Source: an uncultured Alphaproteobacteria bacterium
GTDB taxonomy: Bacteria > Electryoneota > RPQS01
DNA: 64,000 nucleotides
Direction: 5' to 3'
Assembly: GCA_964370805.1 (NCBI GenBank)
Contig: CAYJKM010000002.1
Span: 1,599-65,598, forward strand
Shown: in pieces, positions 27,151-56,631 of the stretch
Position numbering within the stretch: position 1 is the first letter of the stretch
Layout: every line of letters starts with the position of its first letter
Translations under genes and position numbers: made by a program
Notes under the pieces: generated by a model
Told to the model about the DNA's origin: nothing
The model's database searches: none
Seen by the model: the letters and a program-made list of their open reading frames with translations, nothing else

Positions 27151-27191
27151 GACCGCCGTCAAGCCTGCGTTGACGGCGGTTCCTATCTTTT
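27151..27191 (+). terminator. Rho-independent terminator-like hairpin (possibly bidirectional) in the leader of the island's first gene
   Basis: GACCGCCGTCAA - 7-nt loop - TTGACGGCGGT (11-12 bp GC-rich stem) followed by TCCTATCTTTT and preceded by AAAA. It lies 40 nt upstream of the ATG at 27234 and at the end of a roughly 950 bp ORF-free gap. Confidence 0.55.
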
Positions 27192-27233: not shown

Positions 27234-28979
27234 ATGAACAGCGAGCTCAAGGCGTCAATGGCAAACGTCGACAACGCGGGTACGACCCGTCTGCAATTCC
27301 ATTATCGCGTTAAAGTCGGCGTGACCGGCCACCGAGTTTTGCCGCAGGATAGTGAATTAGCGGGACGGATTCAGGATGTCCTTACCGACATCGAGCAGAT
27401 TGTCGGACCATCGGGCGGGGTTGCCATCCAATGGGAAATTCTCAGTTCGCTGGCAGATGGTGCAGATCGTCTTGTGGCCCGTGAAGTGCTGAAGCGAGGC
27501 GATGCGCGGCTGCGGGCTGTTATTCCGATGATGATCGCGGAATACAAAACAACGTTTGGTCTGGACGCTCATGGTAGTCCCATGTCAGACCGCTCAATCG
27601 AAGTCTCGCATCGAGAGTTCGATGAGTTGATCGCGGACTCTCGCACTCGCCCGGTCTTTCTTCATGGGAAACCGATTGCCGAGGATGCGGCACCCGCTGA
27701 GGCAACTCAAAAGGCACGTCACGACGCTTACCGCGAAGCAGGAGAATACATCCTGCGCCACTGTGATTTCCTGATCGCATTGGTTGATCCCAATCGTCCG
27801 AAGCGACGGGGTGGGACACATGACATCCTGGGCGAAGCTCGCAAGCTCCGCGTGCCGACGTATGTGATTGATCTCCGGCAGGCTCCGTTCCCCGTGCGGC
27901 GCAAACGATTGGGGCACTTCGACCACTCCGGAATTCGCGCCATCAACGCCTTTGCTGCCCCGGCCGTTCGCAAGGCTGGGAGCGAAACGGAATTTGACGA
28001 GTGGTTGCGGCCGTTCCGGAAATCGACGAGCGCAGATCTGAATGCGGAGTTGCTTATACAAGTTGAGAAGCGCCTGATCCCCTACTACACCAAAGCGTCG
28101 CAGCTGGCAAAGACCAATCAACACGCTTACCGCACAACCGGGATTGCCATCTATCTCTTTGCGATCGTCGCCATACTGCTGGTGACGGTTGGGGCGATGG
28201 TGGAGAAATGGAGTCTGGGATTCTTCACCGCTGAAGCCATCGCTCTTGCCGGAATTATCCTGCTGATTGGAGTGGCGCGCAAGCAGGGATACCACCGTCA
28301 ATGGATCACGTTGCGGTTTCTGGCTGAGCGCTTGCGTGCAGCATCTTTTCTAACCGCGGTTGGTGTTCGCCCGTCGCAGTTGCGCCGCGGCCCTGCGCCC
28401 ACGGGGATTGTGGCGCAATGTGACTGGACGGCTCACGTCTTCAATCGCATCATCGCTCAGGTGGTGTTTCCTATTTCCGGCGACGCGGCCCCGCTGGAGG
28501 CAAAACGACGGTTTATCACGGAGCAATGGCTGCGGGACCAACAACGCTGGCACCTTCGGAGAGCCGTAGAGCATATCGTGCGAAATCGCTGGTTCGAGAC
28601 TCTGGGGAGTCTCTTATTCTATGCGACTCTGATCACGGCCTTCGTGCACGCCATTGCACATATGGAATCAAGATTCCTGCGCCAATTCGCGACCCTGGCC
28701 GCACTTGCATTCCCTGCGATCGGCGCGGCCTTCAGCTGGTTCCGCAGCCACCGCGAATACGAACGACTCGCAACGCGCAGCCGAGAAATGTCGGATCAGC
28801 TCTTGGAGCTGGCATTTGAAGCGGACACCGCTACGGAGCAGAAACATGAATCCGACCGCGAGTCACCTCCGATGACGCAATTTGAAAACATCGTTCGGCG
28901 AATCGACGACATCATGCTGACTGAATCGCAGGACTGGCGTGGACTGGTTCGGTTTCTCAACGTGACCAAACCGCATTAA
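27234..28979 (+). CDS. SLOG-like (DprA/LOG-superfamily Rossmann) domain fused to a two-TM (SLATT-like) membrane effector domain
   Basis: 581 aa. The N-terminal roughly 230 aa has SLOG-like motifs (VGVTGHR, SSLADGADRLVAREVL, RRGGTHDILGEARKLRVPTYVI). Two adjacent TM helices at about aa 300-350 (IAIYLFAIVAILLVTVGAMV / FFTAEAIALAGIILLIGVA) are followed by a cytoplasmic C-terminal domain. Confidence 0.5.
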   Translation: MNSELKASMANVDNAGTTRLQFHYRVKVGVTGHRVLPQDSELAGRIQDVLTDIEQIVGPSGGVAIQWEILSSLADGADRLVAREVLKRGDARLRAVIPMMIAEYKTTFGLDAHGSPMSDRSIEVSHREFDELIADSRTRPVFLHGKPIAEDAAPAEATQKARHDAYREAGEYILRHCDFLIALVDPNRPKRRGGTHDILGEARKLRVPTYVIDLRQAPFPVRRKRLGHFDHSGIRAINAFAAPAVRKAGSETEFDEWLRPFRKSTSADLNAELLIQVEKRLIPYYTKASQLAKTNQHAYRTTGIAIYLFAIVAILLVTVGAMVEKWSLGFFTAEAIALAGIILLIGVARKQGYHRQWITLRFLAERLRAASFLTAVGVRPSQLRRGPAPTGIVAQCDWTAHVFNRIIAQVVFPISGDAAPLEAKRRFITEQWLRDQQRWHLRRAVEHIVRNRWFETLGSLLFYATLITAFVHAIAHMESRFLRQFATLAALAFPAIGAAFSWFRSHREYERLATRSREMSDQLLELAFEADTATEQKHESDRESPPMTQFENIVRRIDDIMLTESQDWRGLVRFLNVTKPH

Positions 28980-29316
28980 AGCAACTTTGCATGTTATTCC
29001 GGCGGAAGCCGGGAGTGTTTGGTAGTGAATCGCAAGAGAAGGACATCCGGCCGGGGATTGTCAGCAGATCGAGTTTAGGGTCTGAGATTTGACCAGATCA
29101 ACCTCGCGTACAATTGATGACGATCGAGAGCTTGCAGTAGGTGTTGCAGCTGAAAGTGAAGCGAGTCACGCAGTGCAGGCAGACCCGATGGCGATGCCGG
29201 CCCGCAGAGAAGTTCTCCAACAGAAAGCAAACGGCGGCAAGCAGGAGACCGTGCGATAGCCTCGGCGCCCATCATGATCATTTCAATGAACCGGCAGCGA
29301 GTTAAATTTCGAGGCC

Positions 29317-31728
29317 ATGAACAGCGAACAGCATAAACAATTTCTAACCAAGTACGCGCTTGAAAGAGGCGCGTATGCAGAGTTCGCGGCACAATTAGAG
29401 ACCATATTGGGCCGAGCAGCAAGCCTTTATGCTCCTCTGGCTGTCATTCAGACCCGTGCCAAGAGTCTCTCGAGCTTTTCTGAGAAGGCGGTGCGAAAAG
29501 GAGACAAGTATCGAGACCCGCTGCGCCAGATGACGGATCTGTGCGGGGCACGTGTGATCGTACATACGCTTGAGGAAGTGGATCGAATCTGTGAATTTAT
29601 CAAGGCGAATTTCGAGATCGACGAAACGAACAGCCTGGACCTGCGCACGCGACTGTCCGCAAGTGAATTCGGCTATCTCTCTGTGCACTACGTTGTTTCC
29701 CCGAAACGGGCGGAAATCCTGGGAGTGCCGATTCCGCCGGGGATCCGTGATCGAAAAGCGGAGATCCAGGTGCGAACCATTCTGCAGCATGCCTGGGCCG
29801 ATATCAGTCACGACCGGATCTACAAGAGCACGTTCAAAATCCCGGAGCGTTGGATCCGGGAATCCGCTCGCCTGGCTGCCGTCCTGGAAAATGCGGACGC
29901 CGCCTTTGCGCGGCTGACAAGCGTGATGGACGATCTTGCAGCCCATTACGGTGCTCTGCTGACGCAAGATGAGTTCGAGCAGGAGACAGACATTCTGAAA
30001 ACCGTGCTGGCAAATGAGCCGGATCCTGAGAACAGACCACGGATTGCTCTGCGTCTGGCACGGCTCTTTGCGGCCAGTGAACAGTGGTCGCGGGCAATCA
30101 CAGTTCTCGAGGAATATGTTGACAACCAGGCTTCAGTGTTGCCCCAGATGCAAAGCGAATTAGGCCGAGCTTACTGTGAGGCTCATCGGGGCCTACCCGA
30201 CCACGAACTGTTTCGCCGGGGAACATTGTTGCTGCGGGCGGCCGCGGAAAGACAGGCCGATCCGCTGCGTCCGTCAGGTGAAGATGCGAACAGTCTGCGG
30301 GCAGCATCCTTATCTTATCTTGCCAAGTCGTACCGGTACGCAGACAACCCGGCGACCGACATACGTGACGTGCTGCTCGAAGCTCACCGGCTGCACCCCG
30401 CTAATCCGTATTACTTTGCGGCGTTTATCGAGTCGGATATCATTGCCCGAGGCGACACCGCTTCACTGCCCTTGCTGGGAAATGCTATTGGCGCCGCAAT
30501 TCGTACGTGCCAGGAACACATCGAATTCGGATTAGAACTGCCCGAGGCGTTTTTCACGATTGGAAAACTTCGGATTCTCCTGCATCAGCCGTACCAGGCG
30601 CTAAGTGCCTATGCAAAGGCTGTGGATGTGAGCCGATCGGGCAAGAACCGTGTCTCAAGGGCCAAACTTCAGGATGAAATCGAACGTCTTCAGAGTCTTC
30701 AAACTTATCTGCCGCGTTCCGAAGCGTTAGAGTGGGCTTTGCGGTTCTTGCACGTTGCAGTGAAGGCGTTTTGTGATGCGCCGCAAAATGAAGGCACAAG
30801 CACAGCGACATCCTTGCCTGTCGTTTACCTTGCCGGGAGTCTTCAGCCGCCAGCGGGATATTCCGACAACTTCTACCGCGAGATGCTGGCGGCAGTATTT
30901 CACAAGTATGATGGGTTGCTGATTACGCCAGTGGCCATCCCGCCGGAGCATCTCGGTAAGCACCCGGTGCGCAAATGCGATGGAACGGTGCCCGAGATAC
31001 TGAGCATTCTGGCTGAGTTGGTTGACAGCGGCAACGCGGTGGCTAAAGTCCCAGTAATCTGTATCGGCGGCGACGCCAATGCGGCCGCGGCGTGTCACGT
31101 TGCCCTTGCACTGGGGGCAACGGTCGGCGCTGTCGCATCCAGCGGCGGAGCCGCTTCTAACTTGATGCACGACGACGACTGGCATGATCATGACCGGCTC
31201 CTGGCGCTTCCGCACGATCGCATGACGCTCTGGGCCTTTATTAATGCAAGCGGCAAGTCTCCCTGGACGGCGGCTCAACTTGAAGCTGCGGCGCGGAGCG
31301 TGCATGAGCACTATTTGCAAATGAGAACTGAGGGGCAGCCAGAGCTTTCGCTGGTCCCCTGGTCATTCTTGGACGAGTCCCTCAAGGAATCGAATCGGCA
31401 ACAAGTGCTGAACATGAGTCAAGCACTCGCATACGCGGGAGTCATTACTGATTTCGGCCGGCCATCAACATCTGTCCCGGAACTTACACCAGCGCAAGTG
31501 GAATTAGTTGCGGAACTGGAACATGGCCGCTGGAATGTGGAACGATTGAAGGATGGGTGGAGGCCTGGACCAAAGAAGGACATTGCCGGGAAAATCAGTC
31601 CTTACCTGGTGGGTTGGAAAGATCTCCCTGAACAGATCAAAGATTATGATCGAAATGCGGCCAGGCAGTTTCCGGCAATCGTCTCAGCGTCAGGCTTGGA
31701 AATCACGTACCCGGTTCCCCACACTTGA
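29317..31728 (+). CDS. RelA/SpoT-like nucleotide pyrophosphokinase (alarmone-synthetase fold) fused to TPR-like helical region, SLOG-like domain and C-terminal RyR domain
   Basis: 803 aa. The synthetase motifs RAKSLSSFSEKAVRK, DLCGARVIV and EIQVRTILQHAWADISHDRIYK lie at aa about 40-170. A helical TPR-like middle follows. A Rossmann-like VVYLAGS...VICIGGDANAAAACHVALALGATVGAVASSGGAASNL segment (SLOG/LOG-like) follows that. The C-terminal LAELEHGRWNVERLKDGW.PGPKKD..GKISPYLVGWKDLPEQIKDYDR matches the RyR domain consensus. Confidence 0.65.
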   Translation: MNSEQHKQFLTKYALERGAYAEFAAQLETILGRAASLYAPLAVIQTRAKSLSSFSEKAVRKGDKYRDPLRQMTDLCGARVIVHTLEEVDRICEFIKANFEIDETNSLDLRTRLSASEFGYLSVHYVVSPKRAEILGVPIPPGIRDRKAEIQVRTILQHAWADISHDRIYKSTFKIPERWIRESARLAAVLENADAAFARLTSVMDDLAAHYGALLTQDEFEQETDILKTVLANEPDPENRPRIALRLARLFAASEQWSRAITVLEEYVDNQASVLPQMQSELGRAYCEAHRGLPDHELFRRGTLLLRAAAERQADPLRPSGEDANSLRAASLSYLAKSYRYADNPATDIRDVLLEAHRLHPANPYYFAAFIESDIIARGDTASLPLLGNAIGAAIRTCQEHIEFGLELPEAFFTIGKLRILLHQPYQALSAYAKAVDVSRSGKNRVSRAKLQDEIERLQSLQTYLPRSEALEWALRFLHVAVKAFCDAPQNEGTSTATSLPVVYLAGSLQPPAGYSDNFYREMLAAVFHKYDGLLITPVAIPPEHLGKHPVRKCDGTVPEILSILAELVDSGNAVAKVPVICIGGDANAAAACHVALALGATVGAVASSGGAASNLMHDDDWHDHDRLLALPHDRMTLWAFINASGKSPWTAAQLEAAARSVHEHYLQMRTEGQPELSLVPWSFLDESLKESNRQQVLNMSQALAYAGVITDFGRPSTSVPELTPAQVELVAELEHGRWNVERLKDGWRPGPKKDIAGKISPYLVGWKDLPEQIKDYDRNAARQFPAIVSASGLEITYPVPHT

Positions 31729-31859: not shown

Positions 31860-32408
31860 ATGAAACCTCCGAAGACGGAAGGTTTATTCGACTATCCATT
31901 GCCGATCCCGCGTCACACGCTCTACGAAGAGCTGGGCCTGGGCCCCGAGGCGACGCCGGAAGAGATCCGGGAGGCCAAGGCTGAAGCCGTGCGGAAACTT
32001 CGTGCGCGCCGTGCAGCCATTCAGACGAGGATGGCGAGCCTGACCGCCGGTTCGCACCCCTCGCGAACGCAGCACGCAGAGCAAGAACAGCATGAGCGTG
32101 AGCTTCGACAGCTCCGCGCGGAGCACAAGAAGCTCGAGGAGCGGGAAGTGCAGATCAATACCATTGGCTTGGAATCCACTGAAAAGCGACGCCAGTACGA
32201 TGCGGAACATCCACCGCTCGCTCTGTTGAAACTCGCGCCGCCGGCGGGGGATGTGTTCAAAGATAATCGCCTCGTAATCGTTCTTCTGCGCCGGGAATTG
32301 TCAGCGTTTCTCCAGCAGCGCGGCATGGATGTGTTTCATCCCTCGGATCTGACACGCATCGATTTCACGTCTGACTTCACTTATTTTGAAATTCTGGACG
32401 GAGAATAG
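31860..32408 (+). CDS. Divergent J-domain-like protein (HPS instead of HPD), otherwise hypothetical
   Basis: 182 aa. N-terminal LYEELGLGPEATPEEIREAKAEAVRKL...SHPS resembles J-domain helices II and III but is non-canonical, with no Zn-finger or C-terminal domain. First gene of a tightly packed operon. Confidence 0.35.
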   Translation: MKPPKTEGLFDYPLPIPRHTLYEELGLGPEATPEEIREAKAEAVRKLRARRAAIQTRMASLTAGSHPSRTQHAEQEQHERELRQLRAEHKKLEEREVQINTIGLESTEKRRQYDAEHPPLALLKLAPPAGDVFKDNRLVIVLLRRELSAFLQQRGMDVFHPSDLTRIDFTSDFTYFEILDGE

Positions 32409-32411
32409 ATC

Positions 32412-33203
32412 ATGACGTCTCGAACGCCCAAAGCCGGTCGCAAGCGACCTTCTGCGGCCGGGAAGAAAGCCGGGCGCCTTGCCGGGGACAGACCGGATTC
32501 GCAAAACACGGCGACGAGTCTGCCTCTTGGCGGCGACTCAATCCCGTTGCCATCGGAACCTGAGATTTACCGGGTGGATGCGGCGGTGGTGGCTGAAAAG
32601 TATGCACACCGGCCACCGCGCGGTGATCACGGCTCAACCCGCTTCCCGTGGCGCGAGCACGTGCACCGGCTGGAAGCCGGCATCGAAGAAATGAACGATG
32701 ACATGCTTGTGCAGTTGAAGCAGCTGCAGGGACTTCAGTCACAGCTGTCAGAACTGTCGGAATTGGTGCATGCTCTGCGCGTGACGCATTTGAGCGAGTT
32801 GCGCAGCATGGCGATCTCGCTGGACAATCTCCGCCGCGATCTGATTTCCGAACGCCAGGCATTCTCGGCACGGAGCACGTTTAACGCCGTCCTGCCGTGC
32901 CTCGACTCGCTGATGCGGATGCAAAGTGCCGCCAACCGGAATTCGCAGTCCGAATTTGAAGCACAACTTGCCGCCACAGTAGACACACTGAGGCGAGCGT
33001 TAAGTGGGTTGGGATTTACAGAATTTACCTGCTCACCTGGAGAGCGATACGACCCCGTACTGATGGAATGCCTGGGTGAGGCGGACGGTGAGAACGGTGT
33101 TGTGCTTGCGATTGTCCGGCCCGGATACCGGGTCGGTACAATCATCGCTCGGCCCTGCGGAGTCTTGATCTCATGCTCATCAAACGAAACTGAAATCCAA
33201 TAG
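32412..33203 (+). CDS. GrpE-like nucleotide-exchange-factor homolog
   Basis: 263 aa. A basic disordered N-terminus, a coiled-coil middle, and a C-terminal beta-domain GENGVVLAIVRPGYRVGTIIARPCGVLIS resembling the GrpE C-terminal signature. Confidence 0.5.
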   Translation: MTSRTPKAGRKRPSAAGKKAGRLAGDRPDSQNTATSLPLGGDSIPLPSEPEIYRVDAAVVAEKYAHRPPRGDHGSTRFPWREHVHRLEAGIEEMNDDMLVQLKQLQGLQSQLSELSELVHALRVTHLSELRSMAISLDNLRRDLISERQAFSARSTFNAVLPCLDSLMRMQSAANRNSQSEFEAQLAATVDTLRRALSGLGFTEFTCSPGERYDPVLMECLGEADGENGVVLAIVRPGYRVGTIIARPCGVLISCSSNETEIQ

Positions 33204-33214
33204 AGGAATGGACG

Positions 33215-35215
33215 ATGTGGCACACAGTCATTGGAATTGATTTGGGAACTACGTACAGTGCGGTGGCCTCCTATCATGCTGGTCAGGAACAGGCGATGTT
33301 GATTGAAGACCATAATGAAGGGAACGCACTGACCACCCCTTCCGTAGTGGGATGGGATTCCGGCGCCGGCAGAGTCATTGTGGGGCGAACCGCCCGACGA
33401 ACCGTTCGTGCATTGCAGAAGCCGATCATCGAAATCAAGCGTGAAATGGGAGAAGTATTCGATGAGAAGTTGCTCGACCGCTTTAATGCCCGCGGGGTGT
33501 ACAATGTCGGCGACCCGGTCCGCGTCTTCTTTGCCGGCGAATGGCTGCTGCCGCAGGAGATTAGTGCGTTCACGCTGACCCGAATGCGGCAGATTGCTGA
33601 ACAGGAACTCCGTACGGAGATCCGGGACGCGGTGGTCACGGTTCCGGCCTATTTTACCGACAAACAAAAGAGTGCGACATATGAAGCGGCGCTGCTGGCA
33701 GGACTGTACCCGCGGCAGTTAATCGCAGAGCCGACGGCGGCGGCAATCTGTTACGGCGTGGACACGTGGAACCCTGACCGTCGAGTCTACCTGGTCTACG
33801 ATCTGGGCGGAGGCACATTTGATGTTTCGATTATCGAGGTGGAGGGCGAGCGGATTGATGTTATTGCCACGTCGGGGGACCGCCGCCTGGGCGGCAGCGA
33901 TTTCGATAACGCCATTACCGAATGGGCCATGAACGAGCTGAAGCGGGATGGATTGGACGTGCTGCAGGTTCCCGCAGGCAGGGAACTGCTCAAGCAGGCC
34001 GCGGAAGAGGCCAAGATCCTTCTCAGCTCGTATCAAGAGACGAAGCTGAATCTGGCAGAAGTCTATCCCAATCGGCCGCCGCAACTCATTTTGACCCGCG
34101 AGAAATTCCTGGAGCTGATTAATGCGGACCTGCGAAAGTCCCTGAGCTTTGTCGATGACGCGTTGGAGCGTGCGCAACATAATCGCAATATTGCCCGCGA
34201 GGACGTCTCGGCAGTACTTCTGGTGGGTGGATCAACACGGATTCCTAAAGTCCGCGAGATGCTCGCCGAACATTTTCTCAAAGATGCATCATTTGTGCGA
34301 GCCGATGCGGATCCTGACGCCGTGGTGGCGCGTGGCGCGGCTGTCGTAGCCCACCGGTTTGAGCCCACGCCGCCACCCTTCGACATTACCCGGCCAACGG
34401 ACGACGCGTCGAATATTCGACTGGCGGATGACGGCTTGGTGATCGGGCTAATTACGGAGCATTCGCTCGGCGTCGGGACTGCTAACCACGATCTCGTGGA
34501 CAAGATCGTCACTCAGGGCACCAGTATTCCGGTCACGGTGACCAAGAGCGGCTACACCAATTCGGGCCAGGGAAGCTATACCATGGTTCCCGTTTGTCAA
34601 GGCGAAGGCGATTACCTGCCGCAGAACACCAAAATCGGTGAATTAAAAATTGGGCCTCACGCCGCGTCTCCACCGGGAACGCATCAGTTTGAAGTAACCT
34701 TTGCGTTGGACGTGAATGGACTTTTGACGGTGAGCGTTCGTCACATCAATGAGAACAAGACGTACACAGATCAATACGTTCGCAAGACCAGCGTCGGCGG
34801 CCTGGCCGCGCTGGTTCCGCTTTACAACCGCATCCTTCGTTATTATTTTGGAGCCGGAGGCGCCACTGATTTGAACCTTCCGCCGCCACAGCTTGATGAT
34901 CACCGAGCCCCAACCGATGACTCCACCACGCCGCGGGAAACTCCGCCCTATCCGGGCACGGAGGGCAAGAGTCTTCCACGTCCCGGGGCAGCAGCTTCAC
35001 CCACGCTTGTTGAGGTTTCCGGAAATGTCCCGGAAGCTTTCAAGAGCCTTGTGCGGCGATCCCAGAAACTTCTGCTGTCCAAACTGGATGTTCAACTCGC
35101 GGAGCGCTTTAATCGGTTTGTCAGTGCGCTGAATGCGAGTGCATCCAACGAGAAGCTGGAGGAACTGGCTGACGAACTTGAGGATGCCTATCACGATGCC
35201 CGCACGCAGTCCTGA
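33215..35215 (+). CDS. Hsp70 (DnaK-like) paralog, non-housekeeping
   Basis: 666 aa. NBD motifs IGIDLGTTYSAVA, DLGGGTFDVSI and LLVGGSTRIPKV are present. The SBD-beta is recognisable (CQGEGDYLPQNTKIGELKIG...EVTFALDVNGLLTVS). The canonical lid is replaced by a Pro-rich divergent C-terminus. Confidence 0.8.
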   Translation: MWHTVIGIDLGTTYSAVASYHAGQEQAMLIEDHNEGNALTTPSVVGWDSGAGRVIVGRTARRTVRALQKPIIEIKREMGEVFDEKLLDRFNARGVYNVGDPVRVFFAGEWLLPQEISAFTLTRMRQIAEQELRTEIRDAVVTVPAYFTDKQKSATYEAALLAGLYPRQLIAEPTAAAICYGVDTWNPDRRVYLVYDLGGGTFDVSIIEVEGERIDVIATSGDRRLGGSDFDNAITEWAMNELKRDGLDVLQVPAGRELLKQAAEEAKILLSSYQETKLNLAEVYPNRPPQLILTREKFLELINADLRKSLSFVDDALERAQHNRNIAREDVSAVLLVGGSTRIPKVREMLAEHFLKDASFVRADADPDAVVARGAAVVAHRFEPTPPPFDITRPTDDASNIRLADDGLVIGLITEHSLGVGTANHDLVDKIVTQGTSIPVTVTKSGYTNSGQGSYTMVPVCQGEGDYLPQNTKIGELKIGPHAASPPGTHQFEVTFALDVNGLLTVSVRHINENKTYTDQYVRKTSVGGLAALVPLYNRILRYYFGAGGATDLNLPPPQLDDHRAPTDDSTTPRETPPYPGTEGKSLPRPGAAASPTLVEVSGNVPEAFKSLVRRSQKLLLSKLDVQLAERFNRFVSALNASASNEKLEELADELEDAYHDARTQS

Positions 35216-36704
35216 TCTTCCTCGCGAGTTGGACATTGACTTTATGGGTGACGGGCGCAAACGCGTGGTTCGTGTCGGTTCGGCCATGTGGGGTCACGTG
35301 TTCGCGGCAGAGCCAGAGCGCACGTTCTACCGGATTATTCCGTTGGCATACCTGCCAACTTGGGAGATGCGGCAAAAGGCTGTGGCTCTTGTCGGTCGCG
35401 ATCCGTTGCCGGGATTGCCGCGCTACCTGCGGGCGGAGCAAGTTACCATCGCGGACGATGACGGGTATTTTGTGATCGAGTATCAGGTGGTGTCCGCAAG
35501 CGCGCCAGCTTTCGACTTAGAGACGGCTGACCCGCTTCGCAGGCTGGAACGGGTGTGTGCAGTGATGAATGAGCTTGGGGCCTGGCGCCAGCGGTTGGAT
35601 CAGGCGCTCTTTCTCATGCCGTCGGATATTGTCTTCGTAGACAACATTCCCATCCTGCTGTTTACGCCGGATTGGGGGCTGCCGCCCCTTGACGCGATCT
35701 TTCAAGAGCCGATCCGATCCCGCTATCTGCCGCCGGAGGCCATCACGGGCAAGGATTCAATTCTCTGGCGTGGCAATAGCGACGTCTTTTCGCTGGGGAT
35801 GATCGCGCTGCAGTGTTTTTACACCCTTCCTCTTGCCGACGATTCTGAAACGGCGTTGATGCTTGCAGCAGCGGGTTCAGTCCCCGAACTGTCCAGTCAG
35901 CCGGGCACATTGCCTTACTGGATGTACAAGGCTCCGGGCTTGCAGGAGGCGCTGAAACTATTGTCCCGGACCGTTTCCTCTGCTCGCGTGCGCAGCGCCG
36001 TCGAACCCTTTTCGCTGGCCCGGTCGCTGAATCAATGCCGTACCCGCATGCTGCCGGAGCGCGCCGCCGAAGAACTGCGCCAGATGGGACAGTCGCGCGA
36101 GGCCTTCAACCTGCTTCATGATGCGATGCTGGTCCAAACCACGCATGAGCTTGCGTTACTGGCGGGCGAGATCGCGCTGCACGATCTGAATGATCCGCTG
36201 GAAGCCATTGACATTCTCGAAAAAGCCATCGAGCGGGATCACCATCGCGTCGCCGCTTACGTGCACCAGTTTGAGGCGATCAGCAAGCTGACTCGATTAC
36301 TCAATGAATTTCGGCTGCTTGAACAGGCTCCGTCCGCGCGAGAACGCATGGACGACCTGATCTGGCGCGACTTCAACCGGATGGACGCGGATCAGCAGCG
36401 GGATAATGAGGTCGCGATGAGTCGGTATTTTCTCTTTCGCCGTCAGTATGAGGCAGCGGCTCATTTTATCTTCCCGCGGTTGCGCATGGGCGCGACACAC
36501 ATGTGGTGGAAGTTTGACTTGAATCTCAATTACGTACGCGCATTGGCCGGGCAGCAGCGAATCGCCGAGGCGTCAGCGTTGCTGCGGTACGTTGCCGGCA
36601 AACTGGACTTTGCCCGCCAGGGCAAGACCCTGGCTCATCATGAAATCACGCGTTTAGATGCCGACGTGCGCGAACTGGCCGACCAACTGAGTGTCGAATT
36701 GTGA
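35184..36704 (+). CDS. Protein-kinase-like (probable pseudokinase) domain fused to helical/TPR-like C-terminal region
   Basis: About 507 aa. Kinase-like subdomains are degenerate: SDIVFVDN in place of HRD..N, DWG in place of DFG, YLPPEAITGK for the APE region, and DVFSLGMIALQCF for subdomain IX. Catalytic His/Arg/Lys are missing. It overlaps the Hsp70 stop. Confidence 0.45.
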   Translation: MPITMPARSPDLPRELDIDFMGDGRKRVVRVGSAMWGHVFAAEPERTFYRIIPLAYLPTWEMRQKAVALVGRDPLPGLPRYLRAEQVTIADDDGYFVIEYQVVSASAPAFDLETADPLRRLERVCAVMNELGAWRQRLDQALFLMPSDIVFVDNIPILLFTPDWGLPPLDAIFQEPIRSRYLPPEAITGKDSILWRGNSDVFSLGMIALQCFYTLPLADDSETALMLAAAGSVPELSSQPGTLPYWMYKAPGLQEALKLLSRTVSSARVRSAVEPFSLARSLNQCRTRMLPERAAEELRQMGQSREAFNLLHDAMLVQTTHELALLAGEIALHDLNDPLEAIDILEKAIERDHHRVAAYVHQFEAISKLTRLLNEFRLLEQAPSARERMDDLIWRDFNRMDADQQRDNEVAMSRYFLFRRQYEAAAHFIFPRLRMGATHMWWKFDLNLNYVRALAGQQRIAEASALLRYVAGKLDFARQGKTLAHHEITRLDADVRELADQLSVEL

Positions 36705-38545
36705 AGCACTTATGTTCTCGCATGTTTTCCTTCCGGCGGCTTGCAGCGTCTGCATTAATACTGTTGTGCCTGTTTTCATTGTCGCGCATCCGGGCTGCGG
36801 ATTCAACCCTCGGAATTCATTCCACGACACAGTCCGCGGACTCAATATGTGGATGCTGCGGCCGATCGCTCAAGACTGCCGCGCGGCTTTCCGATACCAC
36901 CCTTACCCCATTGCTGGAGCAGAGAGCCCGGCAGGTTGCAAGCCGGGAGCGATGGACAACCATACTGGCCGGGGCTGGACTGCTGGCCCTGGTCGTGTTC
37001 TATTTTGCAGTGCTGGTCCCACACCGTCGCCGCCGGCCTCTGACAGAGGCCCTGCGGCGGCTAACGGCTGCTTCACTCTCGGAAGCAGAACTTCAGGCCA
37101 TTGAATCGCTGTTGGATCGGGCTCTGACGGCCGGGTTGCGCCGAACCGATATCGCGGAGGTGCGCTTTCATCTGGCGTTTGTCCGAACACAACTCGGGCG
37201 GTACAAAGAAGCCTTGGGGGTGCTGAGTGACTTGAAGGGCGAGCCCAAACGGCGCAAGGAGATTGTCTATCTCGAACTGTATCTGCACTCCCGTCTGGAA
37301 GAGTATGTCGAGATGGAGCAGATTTTCGAGCAGCGCGGTAGTGTCCTCGATGGTTATCTAGACACCGCGCTGATGATGGGGATCGCGCTGCTGCATCTCG
37401 GGCGGCAAAACTGGAAACGGAGGGATATCGAGCAAGCCGTGCGCTATTTCGAGCGCGTCCGATCTCTGGGCGTATTGCTGGATGAAGTCCCTGCTAACGT
37501 CGGTGATCACCAGATTCTCCTCGGAGTGCTGGTCTTATTTGACAAGGATGTTGTCGGTGCACGAGCGCACTTCGACGGCGCGAAAACGTCGGCGGAAGCG
37601 AACACTGTCACGTCGTTGCAGGCCGAATTAGGGCTGCTGCTCTGCGATTGGATTTCCGAGGAGATGCCGGACATTGACGGCGGGCTGCTCCAAGCCGTAG
37701 GGATGATGGAGCAGCAATTCGGCTTCCCGCGCGATTCGCAACATGAAGGCGAAGCCGCTGACACCGCAGAGCATCTGGCCGGCGAGAATTTGGAGCGGCT
37801 TTATGTAGCGCTGCTGCTTTGGCATGCCGTCTCTTTGATTTACACGTGGTTCCGGCTTCCCGCGAAGACCCGACTGCCCGAGACAGAACTGAGACAACTG
37901 GATGAGCGCGTGGAAAAAGTAAAGCAGGCCGACCCAGAGCTCGGAGATCCATACCTAATCCAAGGATTAATCCGCTACTACTTTGCCACGGACAATGATT
38001 CCAAGTGGCGTGCGGTGGAGTGCTTGGACACGGCTGTTCAGAAAGGGGCCCAAGTCCCGGAGGTCATAAGTTTGGTCGCCAGCGAAAAGCGGCTGGATGA
38101 ACTGGAGCGCGACCGGCTCGGGCGATTCTTGGCGCTGGTAAAGTCATGGTTGTCCAATCGTACGGTGCCGGATTCGATTCGCCGCCATCTGCAGGAAGAG
38201 CTGGCGAGATTCGACCGCTTCCATGTGCTTCAAGATGTCGAAATAGCCGGGGCGGATGAAGATATCGAGCCGTCGGTAAAGGATATCCGGAATCGCAGCG
38301 AGATTGTTCGGAAGCGAGTGCAGACCATCATCGGACAACTCCTCAAAACCGCGGAAACGACAGAGGCCACGGCCATCAACGAGCATCTCACACAGATATC
38401 CTCCGAAACAACAAAGATTGAAGAAGCAGTGAAGCAACTCGACAATCTGGAAGGGGAACTCATGCTGCAGGCCGGGCAATTCCTTTTGAAAGAAGAAGAT
38501 GAGCTGCCGCCAATCCTGCCGCAAGCGGGGGAGTCCGAGCCATGA
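36701..38545 (+). CDS. Membrane-anchored TPR/helical-repeat protein, hypothetical
   Basis: 614 aa. N-terminal hydrophobic signal-like segment plus a TM helix (ILAGAGLLALVVFYFAVLV), then long alpha-helical repeats. ATGA overlap upstream. Confidence 0.45.
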   Translation: MKHLCSRMFSFRRLAASALILLCLFSLSRIRAADSTLGIHSTTQSADSICGCCGRSLKTAARLSDTTLTPLLEQRARQVASRERWTTILAGAGLLALVVFYFAVLVPHRRRRPLTEALRRLTAASLSEAELQAIESLLDRALTAGLRRTDIAEVRFHLAFVRTQLGRYKEALGVLSDLKGEPKRRKEIVYLELYLHSRLEEYVEMEQIFEQRGSVLDGYLDTALMMGIALLHLGRQNWKRRDIEQAVRYFERVRSLGVLLDEVPANVGDHQILLGVLVLFDKDVVGARAHFDGAKTSAEANTVTSLQAELGLLLCDWISEEMPDIDGGLLQAVGMMEQQFGFPRDSQHEGEAADTAEHLAGENLERLYVALLLWHAVSLIYTWFRLPAKTRLPETELRQLDERVEKVKQADPELGDPYLIQGLIRYYFATDNDSKWRAVECLDTAVQKGAQVPEVISLVASEKRLDELERDRLGRFLALVKSWLSNRTVPDSIRRHLQEELARFDRFHVLQDVEIAGADEDIEPSVKDIRNRSEIVRKRVQTIIGQLLKTAETTEATAINEHLTQISSETTKIEEAVKQLDNLEGELMLQAGQFLLKEEDELPPILPQAGESEP

Positions 38546-38790
38546 AGCTGATGCGCAAGCAGACTGTTCCTGCGAAGACGTGGTTGCTCGAGCAGCTTGA
38601 ACGCATCGAGTATCAGCGCAAGGACAGCCACGAAGAGATCCAGGCTGAGCAGATGAATCTCGCGGGTTCGTTGTTGCTCCTGACGGGTATCAACCATGAG
38701 CACGAATATGAGGTTTGCACTCAGCTCGCGTCCCATCTTCTCGAAAAGCTCCCGACTCCCAGGCTGAGCGATGAATTCGACGAAGAATAA
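38542..38790 (+). CDS. Small hypothetical protein (82 aa)
   Basis: ATGA overlap with the upstream gene. Acidic C-terminus and no recognisable motif. Confidence 0.35.
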   Translation: MKLMRKQTVPAKTWLLEQLERIEYQRKDSHEEIQAEQMNLAGSLLLLTGINHEHEYEVCTQLASHLLEKLPTPRLSDEFDEE

Positions 38791-46533: not shown

Positions 46534-47034
46534 TTGGCCATGAGTTTCTGGCGAGAAACCGAGTTTGTCGGGCGCGTCGTTTCGGTGCCTGAGGTCTACG
46601 AGTTTCAGTCGCGCCCGCAGAGCGGACAAACCGGCAGCGTACGCCGCTTAATGTTTCGTCTGGAAGAACCTTCCGGCCGAGTTTGGGCCGTGCGTTACGA
46701 AGGACCCATTGAGGGCAGCCTGCAGCTTGGTGACTTGATCGCTGTGTTTGGTTACACCCGCGCCCACGGTACGATTCGCGCCACGCGAATCTTTCATGAC
46801 GGCGGCGCTCGACCCGTCCGTATCACCGGCATGAGCCGGATGTGCCTTTTGGCGCTGGTTTGCACGCGCTGCCCGGGACTATTGCTGCCGTTCTACGCAG
46901 TGCGAGATTCACTGCTCTCCCGTAGTCACGTCGGACGATACGTCATCTCCCGCTACTATCAAATCAGTCAAACCCTCTGCCTGCTCTGGTTGGATCTTGC
47001 TATAGACCCGCACACAGATGGCACGCGAGCCTGA
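46534..47034 (+). CDS. Hypothetical protein (166 aa)
   Basis: First ORF after the AT-rich seam and overlaps the next gene's start. Hydrophobic C-terminal segment. No motif recognised. Confidence 0.3.
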   Translation: MAMSFWRETEFVGRVVSVPEVYEFQSRPQSGQTGSVRRLMFRLEEPSGRVWAVRYEGPIEGSLQLGDLIAVFGYTRAHGTIRATRIFHDGGARPVRITGMSRMCLLALVCTRCPGLLLPFYAVRDSLLSRSHVGRYVISRYYQISQTLCLLWLDLAIDPHTDGTRA

Positions 47035-49927
47035 GCGCATTCACAAGCGGTTTGCGGATTTGAAGCCGACTCAGGAGCCTGAGCCGGATTTTGTCGCGGC
47101 GCGTCGCATACTGCTGAGGGGCGATTCACCATCGCCGCCCGATGCCGCATTCCCCGTGCAGCACGACGAAAGAGGATGGTGGCGCATCCGCGAATGTGCG
47201 GTCGCCATGGATCCGGCTAATCCCGAAACGGAAGCCCTTGCGGGGTCGTGGTTGCCGGTGTTGGCGCAACGCGAGCGGCCGGTGACGTTGGCTCTGAGCC
47301 GCCTGTCGTCAGAATACGTACTTGCGGTAAGTGAATCACCGCACGGTGAAGCAACGCGTCTGGCTTTGGAAAGCGCGTATCCCGGCATCGTGCTCGCGCC
47401 GTGGTCACCGCCACGCTTGAGCGGCGGCGCGTGGGGGCGGATAACCGGAATTCCGGCCGCCGATCACAAACCCGCTCAACTGCCGCTCAACCGAATCCTT
47501 GACAGCTCATTATCCGTTGATTTTGTGCTGTGGGTGCAGCTCGTGCCGCTGTCGTCAGGCGAGATGGTGTCGCTGGTCGAGCAGCTTAAGCGCGCGGAAG
47601 CGCTGGCCCGCCGTTACGCGTCCGGAACGCTAACGATCTCGCAGCAACAAGCGAGTCTGCGGAGTGTGAGCGAGCAGCGCGATCAGGCGAACGCCGAAGC
47701 GGCGCTGTTTCTTGATCAGGTCACGCGTGCCTTGAAACGCATGCAAAATGGACTGGCAACGGGTTTGTGGCGTTGGAGCGGAGTGCTCTGGGCGCCGACC
47801 CGTTCACTTTGTGATCAACTGGGTGGTTTATGCCGCGGACTCTGGGGAAGCACAACGTCGGAAGGCGAAACCGTGGAATACGCTCCCATACGGCTTGCAT
47901 CTTCCACCGTGAGCACCGGCAGTATCGTGCAGATCCCTGCAAGCCAATCCGTCGGCGATACCCCGTCCATTCAGTCCATTGTCACGTCGGACGAATTGCG
48001 AAGCGTGAGCCACCTGCCCACTCGCGACGCCCCCGGTTACACAACATATCCGCTGGTACGCTTTGCTACGGCTGTGATGAGTGTACCCGCCGGAGCGGCA
48101 GCTGTAAACGTGGGAACGGTGCTGGACATCTCGCGGGAGACCGGACTCTCCTGGTCACTGACGTTAAGCGCCCTGACGCACCATTGTTTTGTCACCGGCA
48201 CCACCGGCTCGGGCAAAAGCAATACCTGCCGTTATCTACTCGAGCAGCTGCATGCTCATGGCATTCCGTTTTGGGTACTGGAGCCGGCCAAACGCGAGTA
48301 TCGCAGCCTGCTCAAGCACCGCGCACTGCGCGACCGCGTGCGAGTCTACACGCCGGGCAACGAGCGGGTTGCCCCGTTGCGCTTGAATCTGTTTCAGCCT
48401 CCGGCCGGCACGCTGCTGTCTGAGTGGATTGGCGGCTTGAAAACAGTCATTTCGAGCAGTTTTGCTTTGTATGGATCTATGCCGCAATTGCTCGAACGGT
48501 CGCTGTACCAAGCCTATGAGGAGCAGGGGTGGAATACGGCGCGCGACGTGGTCTCGGCGAAAGAGTCGCGTGCGTTTCCGACATTGACGTCCTTCGTTGC
48601 CACTCTGACGACGGTCATAGATGAAGCCGGGTATGGCCGCGAACTTTCGGCCGACTTTCACGGCGCGCTTACCACGCGCATCCGAAGCTTGACATTAGGC
48701 AGTACCGGGGCGATGCTTAACTCAACGGTTCGCTGTGACGTGCGCGAGCTGCTGTGCTATCCCACGATCTTTGAATTCGCATCGGTCACGAACGATCAGG
48801 AGCTGTCGCTGCTGATGGGGGTGTTGCTGTTAAATCTCGCCGCCGTGCGACGCAGCGACGGGTCAAGCGCAAACCTGAAGCACCTGCTCGTATTGGAGGA
48901 AGCGCATCGCCTGTTGCCGGCATTGGGGCCGCTTGCCGAGACCAGCGAAGTGGCGCAAACGCGAAGCCAGGCCGTCAACCTGTTCGTGAATATGCTTGCC
49001 GAGCTGCGTGCATCAGGGCAGGGCTTTGTTCTGGCCGATCAATCGCCGGAGAAAATCGTCAGCGACGCTTTGAAGAACACTGGCACCAAGATCGTCCATC
49101 GTTTGCCGGATCTTCCTGACCGGAACGCAGTCGGCAATACCATGGCGCTTACGGCTATCCAGAAAACCGCGCTGGCGCGACTGAACAAAGGGGCGGCGGT
49201 TGTTTATACGGAAGGCCCCACTCCGGCCGCGCTGGTGCATGTACCGCTGATGCTAACGCTGCCGCCTGTGACGGATGAAGAGATCCGCAAGAGCATGGCT
49301 CCGCATCTGCTCGTGGAGCAGACCGCTTCTGCCGGCCCGGCCTTGTCAGCGAAGATCACAACGCCCGAACGACCGGAACAAAGCGAGACGGGATTGTTTC
49401 GCGGCGTGGAGTTGCTGCGCTGCTTGCTTTCCGGCAAGACCCCTGATGACCTGCAGCCGGATCAAGTCCGTCAGTACGTCGCCGACCGCGCTGCATTTTT
49501 GCGGATCGAAACGGGGGAAGCTGATCGGCTTCAACATCTGCTCTTGGATGCCGCTGATCGAACATTGACAAATGACCAGAACAGGCGGGCCTGGGAGCAG
49601 TTTGCGGCCGACATGTCCCGGCTGATGCTGGCGAAGCGCCACGAGCAAACCCGCTGCGCGGATTGCCCGTCGCATGTTTGCTATGGCGCAGAGACGGAAG
49701 GCATGATGGCTTCCGTAGCCTGGTGGCAAGCCCTGCGTCAATCGCTGGAGAGCGGCGATGCCGCCGCTCTGCGCGAATTCTCGACGGCAGTTGCGCATCA
49801 TCCGGACATGACCATGGATTCATCGACGGAACCTGTGCGCAGCGCACTCGTGCGGTGTCTGGGCATCCGCGTGCTCGCGGAGTTTGACTTTGCCGAACCA
49901 TGGGCCACATTCAACCGGTTAGGATAG
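47018..49927 (+). CDS. HerA/FtsK-superfamily P-loop ATPase (DUF87-like) with long N- and C-terminal extensions
   Basis: 969 aa. Walker A in the HerA-typical context HHCFVTGTTGSGKSNTC, then WVLEPAKREYRSL (HerA DPHGEY-like). Walker B HLLVLEEAHRLLP, and IVHRLPD (Arg-finger-like). Confidence 0.65.
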   Translation: MAREPERIHKRFADLKPTQEPEPDFVAARRILLRGDSPSPPDAAFPVQHDERGWWRIRECAVAMDPANPETEALAGSWLPVLAQRERPVTLALSRLSSEYVLAVSESPHGEATRLALESAYPGIVLAPWSPPRLSGGAWGRITGIPAADHKPAQLPLNRILDSSLSVDFVLWVQLVPLSSGEMVSLVEQLKRAEALARRYASGTLTISQQQASLRSVSEQRDQANAEAALFLDQVTRALKRMQNGLATGLWRWSGVLWAPTRSLCDQLGGLCRGLWGSTTSEGETVEYAPIRLASSTVSTGSIVQIPASQSVGDTPSIQSIVTSDELRSVSHLPTRDAPGYTTYPLVRFATAVMSVPAGAAAVNVGTVLDISRETGLSWSLTLSALTHHCFVTGTTGSGKSNTCRYLLEQLHAHGIPFWVLEPAKREYRSLLKHRALRDRVRVYTPGNERVAPLRLNLFQPPAGTLLSEWIGGLKTVISSSFALYGSMPQLLERSLYQAYEEQGWNTARDVVSAKESRAFPTLTSFVATLTTVIDEAGYGRELSADFHGALTTRIRSLTLGSTGAMLNSTVRCDVRELLCYPTIFEFASVTNDQELSLLMGVLLLNLAAVRRSDGSSANLKHLLVLEEAHRLLPALGPLAETSEVAQTRSQAVNLFVNMLAELRASGQGFVLADQSPEKIVSDALKNTGTKIVHRLPDLPDRNAVGNTMALTAIQKTALARLNKGAAVVYTEGPTPAALVHVPLMLTLPPVTDEEIRKSMAPHLLVEQTASAGPALSAKITTPERPEQSETGLFRGVELLRCLLSGKTPDDLQPDQVRQYVADRAAFLRIETGEADRLQHLLLDAADRTLTNDQNRRAWEQFAADMSRLMLAKRHEQTRCADCPSHVCYGAETEGMMASVAWWQALRQSLESGDAAALREFSTAVAHHPDMTMDSSTEPVRSALVRCLGIRVLAEFDFAEPWATFNRLG

Positions 49928-54568: not shown

Positions 54569-55230
54569 AGTCGGCACGAATCGCGTGGGGCGGACTGGCG
54601 CGAAACGTCAAAGGGCTGGGCCCCGGCGAACGCACCGTTGTCTGGGTCGCCGGCTGCCGTCGGCGTTGTCCGCACTGCATGACGCCTGAACTCCTGCGTT
54701 TTCAGGAACCGAACATTGATGTGGCTGCAGTTGTCAAGTTGATCAGCGCGTCACCGGATTGGAACGGGCTGTTGAGCATATCCGGAGGCGAGCCCTTTGA
54801 GCAAGCGGCCTCACTGTACGAATTGCTCGCGGGCTTGCAGCACGTCGGACTGTCGGAAACGCTGATCTATAGCGGGTACACGCTTGAGCAATTGCAGCGG
54901 CTGGGTGGAGCACGCACCCGGCTGCTGGAGTTGACTGATATTCTGATTGACGGAGTGTACCGGCACGATCTGCCGCAAACCCTCCCTTGGCGGGGATCGG
55001 ACAATCAGCGCGTGCATCTGTTGTCGCCGCGCGTGCAAGGCTATCGCGCCTTCGCCGATACGCCCAGCGATGCCACGGTTCCGCTCGGCATTCAACCCAT
55101 CCCCGATGTAGGGTTCCGCTTGATCGGTATCCCGCGCCGCGACTTCTTCAAGCGTTGGCGCGATACGCTTACCGCCAACCAACTGACAACCGCAAATCAT
55201 GACAACAAGACATCCATTCATCCGCACTGA
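54565..55230 (+). CDS. NrdG/glycyl-radical-enzyme-activase-like small radical-SAM 4Fe-4S protein (orphan)
   Basis: 221 aa. GLGPGERTVVWVAGCRRRCPHCMTPE (the CxxxCxxC context typical of NrdG/PflA-type activases) plus ISGGEPF. ATGA overlap with the AAA+ gene. No glycyl-radical enzyme is nearby. Confidence 0.55.
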   Translation: MKSARIAWGGLARNVKGLGPGERTVVWVAGCRRRCPHCMTPELLRFQEPNIDVAAVVKLISASPDWNGLLSISGGEPFEQAASLYELLAGLQHVGLSETLIYSGYTLEQLQRLGGARTRLLELTDILIDGVYRHDLPQTLPWRGSDNQRVHLLSPRVQGYRAFADTPSDATVPLGIQPIPDVGFRLIGIPRRDFFKRWRDTLTANQLTTANHDNKTSIHPH

Positions 55231-56615: not shown

Positions 56616-56631
56616 ACGGGAAGGAGAACCC

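Follow-up and report, generated by a model that had tools for sequence, protein, structure and literature searches.

A private Hsp70 module heads a conserved nine-gene, TIR-containing cassette in an uncultured bacterium

Does an Hsp70 that is encoded a few genes ahead of a TIR protein belong to the general chaperone machinery of its host, or does it serve its own operon? This question is raised by a stretch of 64,000 nucleotides (referred to here as the window) from an uncultured Alphaproteobacteria bacterium (GTDB lineage Bacteria; Electryoneota; RPQS01; contig CAYJKM010000002.1, positions 1,599 to 65,598). Positions 31860-35215 of the window consist of three open reading frames (ORFs) on the same strand, which encode a J-like protein, a GrpE and an Hsp70. 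This triad heads an operon of nine genes (the cassette) that continues with genes for a pseudokinase-TPR protein, a membrane TPR protein, a small protein of 82 residues, a further TPR protein, a TIR protein and a giant protein (Table 1). An initial annotation of the window had recognized the triad, in the order Hsp70, GrpE and J, and had proposed that it is dedicated to the downstream operon. The triad itself was found again here, but with the J-like gene in front and the Hsp70 gene last. The analysis supports the triad as a private chaperone module that is inherited with the six other genes, and the cassette probably functions in phage defence.

What ties the three chaperone genes to the genes behind them? 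Related loci were anchored either on the Hsp70 or, independently of it, on the J-like gene, and were then searched by tblastn with the proteins of the window. The order of the eight genes from the J-like gene through the TIR gene was the same in all 14 related loci that are long enough (L001, L004, L005, L007, L008, L009, L010, L016, L019, L021, L022, L027, L028 and L037), which makes 15 with the window. The giant gene followed the TIR gene in all eight related loci that reach that far and in the window, and shorter contigs agree with the order as far as they extend. Because the order is conserved in all 14 loci, which come from different phyla, the triad is dedicated, in physical terms, to the genes behind it; the synteny of an Hsp70 paralogue with TIR and TPR genes, to which the initial annotation had pointed as a check, is thereby borne out. 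Within the window, every junction in the cassette is an overlap or a gap of at most 29 nt. The triad is tightly packed as described earlier, but its spacers measure 3 nt (J-like/GrpE) and 11 nt (GrpE/Hsp70) instead of 4-12 nt. The unbroken run from the Hsp70 gene into the genes for the pseudokinase, the TPR proteins, the TIR protein and the protein of 1025 residues was also correctly seen; its junctions are 4-nt overlaps, gaps of 23-29 nt and overlaps of 20-83 nt. The conserved gene for the 82-residue protein had been overlooked. The overlap between the Hsp70 and pseudokinase genes recurs in relatives. None of the nine proteins carries a Walker A motif, and the Hsp70 is therefore the sole NTPase of the cassette.

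The distribution of the cassette is rare and patchy across phyla. Hsp70 homologues at 43-58% identity are common in metagenomes, and the named hosts are a Deltaproteobacteria metagenome-assembled genome (MAG), Planctomycetaceae, candidate division KSB1, Thermoanaerobaculia (Acidobacteria) and Pirellulales. The J-like family comprises 101 clusters in 5.8 billion proteins, all of them annotated as hypothetical. Cassette composition varies as well. In two loci, a gene for an M48 (HtpX/Ste24-type) metallopeptidase lies between the TPR and TIR genes (L007, 17993-18859; L008, 18039-18908), which hints at proteolytic control in some versions, and the TIR is duplicated in L016. A scan of 185,579 species genomes revealed no close relative. 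The J-like protein of the window (98% identity) and a fragment of its pseudokinase (100%) were found on two short ENA metagenome contigs, P0162 and P0222, which measure 3.5 and 2.8 kb; either the source organism itself or one closely related to it has thus been sampled elsewhere.

The Hsp70 is a member of its superfamily by sequence and by fold, with an actin-like nucleotide-binding domain (NBD) that carries the catalytic residues, followed by the beta subdomain of the substrate-binding domain (SBD-beta). The Pfam HSP70 profile (PF00012) was matched with E=3.5e-106 over positions 1-491 of 599. The ATPase residues D8, K70, E171, D194, T199 and D201 (DnaK numbering) do not vary among 26 members of the family, and an AlphaFold2 (AF2) model reached a predicted local distance difference test score (pLDDT) of 87, with high confidence in the NBD and the SBD-beta. 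The intact ATPase core and SBD-beta that had been described for this protein thus stand. The cut-offs of the family models for known Hsp70s were not reached. The two NCBIfam DnaK models scored 345.6 bits (cut-off 648) and 344.1 bits (cut-off 822.55), and the HscA model scored 302.8 bits (cut-off 708.55). In the PDB, yeast Ssb1, human Hsc70 and E. coli DnaK were matched at about 240 bits each, and all matches stop near residue 516. In a neighbour-joining tree built from 493 NBD and SBD-beta columns, the 26 family members form one clade, and E. coli DnaK, HscA and HscC fall on a separate branch together with the extra Hsp70 paralogues of L002, L003 and L010. Over these columns, identity of the window protein to E. 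coli DnaK, HscA and HscC is 35, 34 and 30%, respectively, and DnaK and HscA share 46%. The placement outside the canonical Hsp70s agrees with the earlier proposal. Membership in HscA or HscC is not indicated by the tree, and isc and Djl genes were not found nearby. Some of the paralogues lie close to their cassettes. In L010 (4779-8566), a paralogue of 525 residues, followed by a protein of 737 residues, adjoins the cassette; the similarity of this paralogue to the Hsp70 of the window is confined to the NBD, and it may have no peptide-binding domain. In L002 (7025-8839, minus strand), a paralogue of 604 residues is encoded on the strand opposite the cassette.

The divergence of the Hsp70 extends to the surface on which a J domain would dock. 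In DnaK, the HPD motif of the J domain is contacted by R167, N170 and the interdomain linker. R167 is replaced by Q in 24 of the 26 main-clade members and N170 by P or A, and the linker reads 'ITEH' where DnaK has the D393-L397 stretch; both R167 and N170 are retained in HscA and HscC. The main clade also carries N at D481, and the substrate-arch positions M404 and A429 are Q and N. The C-terminus was modelled as a short helix (residues 530-545), a disordered Pro-rich segment (549-592) and a confidently predicted three-helix bundle (607-665), whose sequence is conserved throughout the family ('VPEQFKSIVRR..KQL...AFNAF..ALN.G....L.DLGDELEDAYHDAR'). A complete SBD-alpha lid (helices A-E) was not found. 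In this architecture, the long helix that closes over the substrate is missing, and a tethered helical domain is left. The initial annotation was right about a Pro-rich C-terminus in place of the lid, but it overlooked the helical bundle behind it. Sequence and model together portray an Hsp70 with an intact ATPase, an altered interdomain linker and J-docking surface, and a substrate-binding domain without its closing lid.

Does this Hsp70 have a nucleotide exchange factor of its own? The GrpE exceeds the Pfam cut-off (41.8 bits; cut-off 25.8) over profile positions 11-164 of 165 and aligns end to end with E. coli GrpE, with which it has the motifs LRR, LPxxDSL, FDP and GY in common. It scored 33 bits with the NCBIfam GrpE equivalogs, whose cut-offs are 164-266. 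Its N-terminal 90 residues are basic, as noted earlier, and they are of low complexity and not conserved among relatives. Wherever the J-like protein is of the long kind and the contig reaches that position, GrpE adjoins the Hsp70. A short form of the cassette without GrpE occurs in L014, L032, L034 and L038; its J-like protein has 120-145 residues and its Hsp70, the length of which could be scored in L014 and L038 only, has about 546 residues and no C-terminal extension. The long hairpin of the J-like protein (described below), GrpE, and the linker and bundle of the Hsp70 co-occur without exception where they could be scored, which suggests that these three elements interact physically.

The third partner is the most diverged. 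The J-like protein of 182 residues had no match at normal thresholds in Pfam, NCBIfam or PADLOC, and the Pfam DnaJ profile aligned to residues 21-39 only (E=0.025), which does not reach the threshold for a J domain. When a profile of eight orthologues was compared with the PDB, the best matches were J domains (DNAJA1, E=0.003; also dnj-12 and DnaJ2), restricted to helices I-II, and the canonical HPD position aligned to 'RAR'. The AF2 model (pLDDT 79) is entirely helical, with helices at residues 21-25, 33-64, 72-101 and 107-116; this is the helix order of a J domain with a greatly lengthened II/III hairpin. Helices I-II and the helix IV motif 'KRxxYD' are retained. The J-likeness that was first noted thus holds for these elements, but it is weak and partial overall. 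Invariant or near-invariant residues are Y22, P29, R110, D114, P118-P119, R144, P161-S162-D163 and R166, and two motifs stand out, 'R..YD..HPPLALLKL' and 'FHPSDLTRxDF'.

The tip of the II/III hairpin, which is topologically the HPD site, carries 'HPS' (residues 65-67), and this had been read as a variant of HPD. Relatives have DP, NP or AP at this position, and the whole hairpin is gone in members of 137-150 residues. Because the motif is unconserved and sits in a variable insert, it is ruled out as an HPD variant. The absence of a zinc finger and C-terminal substrate-binding domains was correctly described; these and a G/F region were found neither by Pfam, which has no further match in the protein, nor in the model. 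From its sequence features, we conclude that the J-like protein is a J-domain remnant that is incapable of the classical HPD mechanism. Its more likely role is that of an adaptor or even of a resident client, and 'PPLALLKL' would resemble a Leu-rich Hsp70-binding peptide.

Which proteins could this module serve? The likely true start of the pseudokinase gene is the ATG at 35184, as judged from the family alignment, and not position 35133. A profile of 83 family sequences matched IRAK4 (5e-4) and B-Raf (5e-3) in the PDB as well as A-Raf, PknE and Greatwall, across both kinase lobes, and it matched TPR proteins over residues 290-360; Pfam Pkinase was matched by seven of the 83 members. These matches support a kinase-like fold weakly. 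Near-invariant residues are R67 (which replaces the beta3 Lys), P163, P201-E202 (APE motif) and R287; the subdomain XI Arg is among the conserved residues. Neither the HRD Asp nor the DFG Asp is conserved in the family alignments, which does not fit an active kinase. These features identify the protein as a probable pseudokinase-TPR protein with moderate confidence. Its family has 164 representatives among 1.84 billion proteins; these were recovered by exhaustive search, as a profile search of the word-indexed database returned only a fragment of the protein itself. The membrane TPR protein has hydrophobic segments at residues 14-32 and 85-103, and its large helical domain is presumably cytoplasmic. 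It is kept in all loci at 30-39% identity, and its profile had no informative match in the PDB. The small protein has about 75 residues in relatives and ends in an acidic tail with the consensus 'PEPEDIDxE-COOH'. EEVD tails are bound by TPR clamp domains, and the acidic tail may recall them; this is a lead only.

The TIR protein was matched by the PADLOC candidate PDC-S66 (1.7e-9). Its putative catalytic glutamate, E87 ('TEWEL'), is kept in eight of nine orthologues, and the ninth has a second TIR. It thus has the conserved glutamate ('WxxxE'-type) of TIR NADases, and NADase activity is putative on this basis. The TIR was also aligned with that of TLR2 (E=3.5e-5), with 'SAMTEWEL' opposite 'SEWCKYEL' of TLR2. 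Inspection of the alignment placed an Ig-like segment and then a beta-rich, propeller-like region behind the TIR, where Pfam SGL matched weakly (E=0.024). The giant protein has 1100-1500 residues in relatives, and no domain was recognizable past its N-terminal TPRs, to which its matches in the PDB were confined.

The surroundings of the cassette change in character along the window. Upstream of 26.3 kb, the genes (molybdenum cofactor, thiolase and enoyl-CoA hydratase) belong to ordinary metabolism. From 27.2 kb on, the content is defence-like and comprises SLATT and RelA/SpoT-RyR genes, the cassette, and HerA/FtsK-like, ClpB-like/radical-SAM-like and PP2C/kinase genes. At this boundary (27151-27181), a GC-rich hairpin of 12 bp with T-runs on both strands resembles a bidirectional terminator; the counts in a promoter and terminator scan of the window were at chance level. 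The SLATT and RelA/SpoT-TPR-RyR pair just upstream of the cassette matches the PADLOC candidate PDC-S33 (E=5.4e-16). In L001, L010, L019, L020 and L029 as well, the cassette has SLATT and/or RyR genes upstream, in varying order and orientation, and they may constitute a linked signal-and-pore module that is not obligatory. Neighbours in other loci include a NACHT STAND protein with WD40 (L009), HATPase_c_3 (L016) and Gp49/HTH (L015).

Further systems follow downstream on the plus strand. A HerA/FtsK-like ATPase of 969 residues (DUF87, Walker A 'GTTGSGKS') is encoded after an overlapping ORF of 166 residues (46534-49927); it is probably a separate defence-type gene, because neither ORF is conserved in other cassette loci. 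At 51144-55230, 7 kb past the cassette, lies an operon for a protein of 463 residues, a ClpB-like AAA+ protein (AAA_2 and ClpB_D2-small) and a radical-SAM-like protein. In a Terracidiphilus MAG (L003, 2133-11352), a homologue of this AAA+ protein (37% identity) has three divergent Hsp70 paralogues in tandem as its neighbours, and this may be a further system linked to Hsp70. At its far end (55755-59118), the island encodes a PP2C phosphatase followed by a Ser/Thr protein kinase of 828 residues.

Table 1. Coordinates of the nine cassette genes and of a possible accessory gene pair in the window
Feature	Position	Strand	Evidence
J-derived adaptor protein (probable), 182 residues	31860..32408	+	PDB profile matches to J domains; Pfam DnaJ E=0.025; AF2 model; family alignment
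GrpE-type nucleotide exchange factor, 263 residues, basic N-terminal extension	32412..33203	+	Pfam GrpE E=1.2e-10
Divergent Hsp70, 666 residues	33215..35215	+	Pfam, NCBIfam, PDB, phylogeny, key residues, AF2 pLDDT 87
Pseudokinase-TPR protein (probable)	35133..36704	+	Family alignments; PDB kinase profile matches
Membrane-anchored TPR/coiled-coil protein, 614 residues	36701..38545	+	Hydrophobicity scan; weak Pfam TPR
Small protein, 82 residues, acidic C-terminal tail	38542..38790	+	Family alignment; present in all full loci
TPR protein, 595 residues	38814..40601	+	Pfam TPR_19 9.6e-11, TPR_16 6.4e-9; position conserved
TIR / Ig-like / beta-rich propeller-like protein, 577 residues	40631..42364	+	Pfam TIR_2 8.1e-14
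Giant helical protein with N-terminal TPRs, 1025 residues	42345..45422	+	Weak Pfam TPR; PDB profile matches to TPR only
Possible accessory pair: SLATT protein with two transmembrane segments (27234-28979) and RelA/SpoT-TPR-RyR protein (29317-31728)	27234..31728	+	Pfam SLATT_1, RelA_SpoT, RyR

How might a chaperone triad act in such a cassette? The evidence leans modestly toward the three genes being the ATP-driven control module of a nine-gene system inherited as a unit, in which a chaperone switch gates a TIR complex in phage defence. As first proposed, and as may reasonably be inferred from the synteny, the Hsp70 would hold or release the TIR effector or set its threshold. The TPR and pseudokinase proteins would form the scaffold of a membrane-associated complex by which the TIR enzyme is kept inactive, and the pseudokinase-TPR protein would be translationally coupled to the Hsp70. 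Targeted by the J-derived adaptor and reset by its own GrpE, the Hsp70 would cycle on one or more partners and so set the threshold for assembly or release. A trigger, most likely phage proteins that compete for the chaperone or disturb it, would shift this equilibrium, and the disturbed chaperone occupancy would free the TIR activity. The TIR domain would then consume NAD+ or make a signal, with abortive infection as the outcome. Here, we infer the identity of the client, the direction of control and the nature of the trigger. The cassette is distributed patchily, varies in composition and has neighbours of the defence type, which favours the immune role. A bolder version is possible, if on balance doubtful. 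In this version, the Hsp70 would join DnaK, HscA and HscC as a fourth functional class among bacterial Hsp70s. Together with its private GrpE and the HPD-less J-derived adaptor, it would be both the sensor and the switch, driven by ATP, for a TIR immune complex anchored in the membrane. The lidless Hsp70 would be titrated off its resident client by phage or misfolded proteins, and the TPR scaffold would then release or assemble the TIR NADase. The resident client could be the pseudokinase-TPR protein or the adaptor's 'HPPLALLKL' element.

Other explanations of the locus have to be set against this chaperone switch. Could the triad be a somewhat diverged housekeeping DnaK-DnaJ-GrpE set beside unrelated genes? 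All three co-chaperone roles are apparently represented, the ATPase residues are intact and no other dnaK lies within the 64-kb window. Yet the Hsp70 and the GrpE score far under the DnaK and GrpE equivalog cut-offs (345 bits as opposed to 648 and 822, and 33 as opposed to 164-266), and identity to DnaK is lower than that of HscA. The J-like protein lacks HPD, the G/F region, the zinc finger and the C-terminal domains, and most of the lid is gone. All 14 related loci of sufficient length have the same genes downstream, and the J-like protein forms about 100 clusters in the proteins searched, whereas dnaK is near-universal. On scores, phylogeny, domain content and synteny, the housekeeping dnaK operon is therefore rejected, as the initial annotation had concluded, and the probability left to it is very slight. 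A second explanation follows the logic of Thoeris: the TIR would make a nucleotide signal, the SLATT pore, possibly with RelA/SpoT-RyR, would be the killer, and the Hsp70 module would control the sensor only. The SLATT and/or RyR genes found close ahead of the cassette, both in the window and in the five loci named above, point this way, as do the weak TIR matches to ThsB and to ThcB4 of Thoeris type III and the N-terminus of the SLATT protein, which by eye resembles a Rossmann-type nucleotide-binding domain. The majority of cassette loci lack SLATT or RyR neighbours, however, and where these are present, order and orientation vary, with SLATT on the opposite strand in L010. A SLOG or other sensor domain was unconfirmed in the SLATT protein (best Pfam match Nuc_deoxyrib_tr, E=0.14), and a ThsA homologue was not found by PADLOC among the neighbours scanned. 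This explanation is thus improbable.

The main rival is a signalling or assembly machine without an immune role, in which the Hsp70 matures or remodels a membrane TPR/pseudokinase scaffold, the TIR is a protein-protein adaptor instead of an enzyme and the output is regulatory (for example envelope, development or stress signalling). Several observations weigh against an immune switch or speak for such a machine. No component matches a validated defence family, as PADLOC returned nothing for the triad and candidate-level (PDC) or weak matches for the others. Searches for the cassette on plasmids, phages and viral contigs were empty, and the upstream flank in the window is ordinary metabolism. 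A conserved glutamate is required for the NADase activity of a TIR but does not suffice for it; the best alignment of the cassette TIR is with TIRs of the scaffold type found in TLRs, and that of TLR2 aligns with the same motif. The hosts are Planctomycetes, Deltaproteobacteria, Acidobacteria and KSB1. Hsp70 paralogues have expanded in bacteria of complex lifestyle (Myxococcus and Anaeromyxobacter), where they are uncharacterized, and in such hosts Hsp70 paralogues, TPR proteins and pseudokinases also occur in housekeeping signalling (PMC13580251). On the other side, the cassette is patchy across phyla at about 50% identity and not lineage-wide, and defence-type neighbours recur (SLATT, RelA/SpoT, NACHT and HATPase_c_3). 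Its variation is of the conflict type (M48 insertion, duplicated TIR, versions without GrpE or without Hsp70), and the TIR glutamate is conserved. The non-immune machine accordingly keeps an appreciable probability, one well short of that of the chaperone switch. Two further findings weigh against the chaperone switch as formulated. Loss of the HPD motif and loss of R167 were considered as co-evolving, which is true of the main clade and fails in the GrpE-less subfamily, where the Hsp70s of L014 and L038 retain R167 and that of L032 has Q; loss of R167 is therefore a trait of the clade and not a rule. In addition, L015 (10001-13520), a minimal variant, encodes a J-like protein, a protein of 70 residues, a fragment-like homologue of the giant with 473 residues that resembles its residues 554-734, and a TIR-TPR protein of 439 residues, with an M48 peptidase nearby on the opposite strand, and has no Hsp70. 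This raises the possibility that the J-like protein has a binding partner on the giant or TIR side of the system in addition to the Hsp70.

Has such a cassette been described before? No published description was found in a full-text literature search, which is no proof that it is unpublished. The nearest description is an Hsp70, GrpE and DnaJ theme in GAP1-N2 GTPase-centric conflict systems, which were identified computationally (Kaur, Burroughs, Iyer & Aravind, eLife 2020; PMC7159879). Both have a dedicated Hsp70, a GrpE and a J/TPR partner in a multi-gene, membrane-proximal predicted conflict system, SLATT effectors nearby, and in some loci an extra Hsp70 without a peptide-binding domain, as may be the case in L010. 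In contrast to the GAP1-N2 systems, in which one or two DO-type GTPases are combined with a GAP1 protein and an FNIII-repeat protein, the cassette has no GTPase, GAP1, FNIII or tubulin component by Pfam and no P-loop. Its J-like protein is free-standing and lacks HPD, its effector would be a TIR, and the pseudokinase, the small protein and the giant are specific to it. The GAP1-N2 theme also differs in its hosts, which are mainly Actinobacteria and Firmicutes.

Specialized Hsp70s are known from HscA/HscB and HscC/DjlB/DjlC, and three prokaryotic types of Hsp70 have been counted (Mayer 2021; PMC8215388). The cassette Hsp70 is like HscA and HscC in being a diverged paralogue, presumably for few clients, that is encoded beside its own J-type partner, with a sporadic distribution suggestive of horizontal transfer and a shortened lid. 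It differs from them in forming a separate clade at lower identity and in having a dedicated GrpE, whereas HscA and HscC are thought to be independent of an exchange factor. Furthermore, its J-type partner is HPD-less, the main clade has lost the R167 and N170 that HscA and HscC retain, and its neighbours are TIR, TPR and pseudokinase genes instead of genes for Fe-S assembly or membrane J proteins.

Chaperones have also been linked to bacterial immunity. In TAC antiphage systems, a SecB-like chaperone is combined with a toxin-antitoxin pair (10.1101/2024.02.24.581848). The likeness to the cassette is one of logic only: a private chaperone accompanies a toxic effector, which in TAC is triggered by a phage protein that competes with the chaperone-binding element. 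The components are not homologous, as TAC has three genes, an ATP-independent SecB and a toxin-antitoxin effector, and the cassette has nine genes, an ATP-driven Hsp70 with an exchange factor and a TIR. DnaJ provides a chaperone precedent in phage sensing with bNACHT25 (PMC12169576), and CoCoNuT restriction systems carry Hsp70-like domains without GrpE or J partners (PMC10542128). Among TIR defences, the two-gene BcTir/Tpr system combines TIR and TPR proteins (10.1101/2023.05.26.542521). The cassette resembles it and Thoeris ThsB in pairing a conserved-Glu TIR with TPR proteins, and its profile matches to ThsB (E=0.0045), ThcB4 and PDC-S66 are weak. It does not qualify as Thoeris, having no effector of the ThsA type, in which a SIR2 or TM domain is joined to a SLOG or Macro sensor, and it differs from these TIR defences in the fusion of its TIR to Ig-like and propeller-like domains and in its nine-gene operon with a chaperone module.

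In eukaryotes, the ATP-dependent chaperones HSP90, with SGT1 and RAR1 on plant NLRs, and Hsp70/Hsp90, with Cdc37 on kinases, act together with TPR co-chaperones and hold TIR/NLR-type immune proteins or kinase-fold proteins poised. By analogy, and without orthology, the cassette could do likewise for TIR or kinase-fold clients. Unlike these general hubs, its chaperone is private to one operon. Taken together, the cassette is rated as a chaperone-associated, TIR-containing conflict-type system and looks like an undescribed immune-type system.

In a 2026 review, DnaK derivatives other than the known types were called 'dark matter' (PMC13580251). The cassette gives one of these uncharted derivatives a defined set of conserved partners, namely a GrpE, an HPD-less J remnant and six candidate clients or co-factors, and the biology of this Hsp70 is therefore directly testable. 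Its hosts belong to environmental phyla with few genetic tools. The cassette would also be a natural experiment in running an Hsp70 cycle that lacks both the HPD contact and a closing lid and that, in the main clade, lacks R167 too. If it is not immune, it is still a conserved and unannotated nine-gene machine. If it is immune, it would place an ATP-dependent chaperone at the regulatory core of a TIR system, an idea that has until now consisted of a computational prediction for GTPase-centred systems of another kind (PMC7159879) and of analogy with the SecB-based TAC systems and with DnaJ-bNACHT25. Should the Hsp70 prove to be the sensor and switch of the TIR complex, the cassette would be a prokaryotic counterpart of the chaperone-guarded immune receptors of plants and animals.

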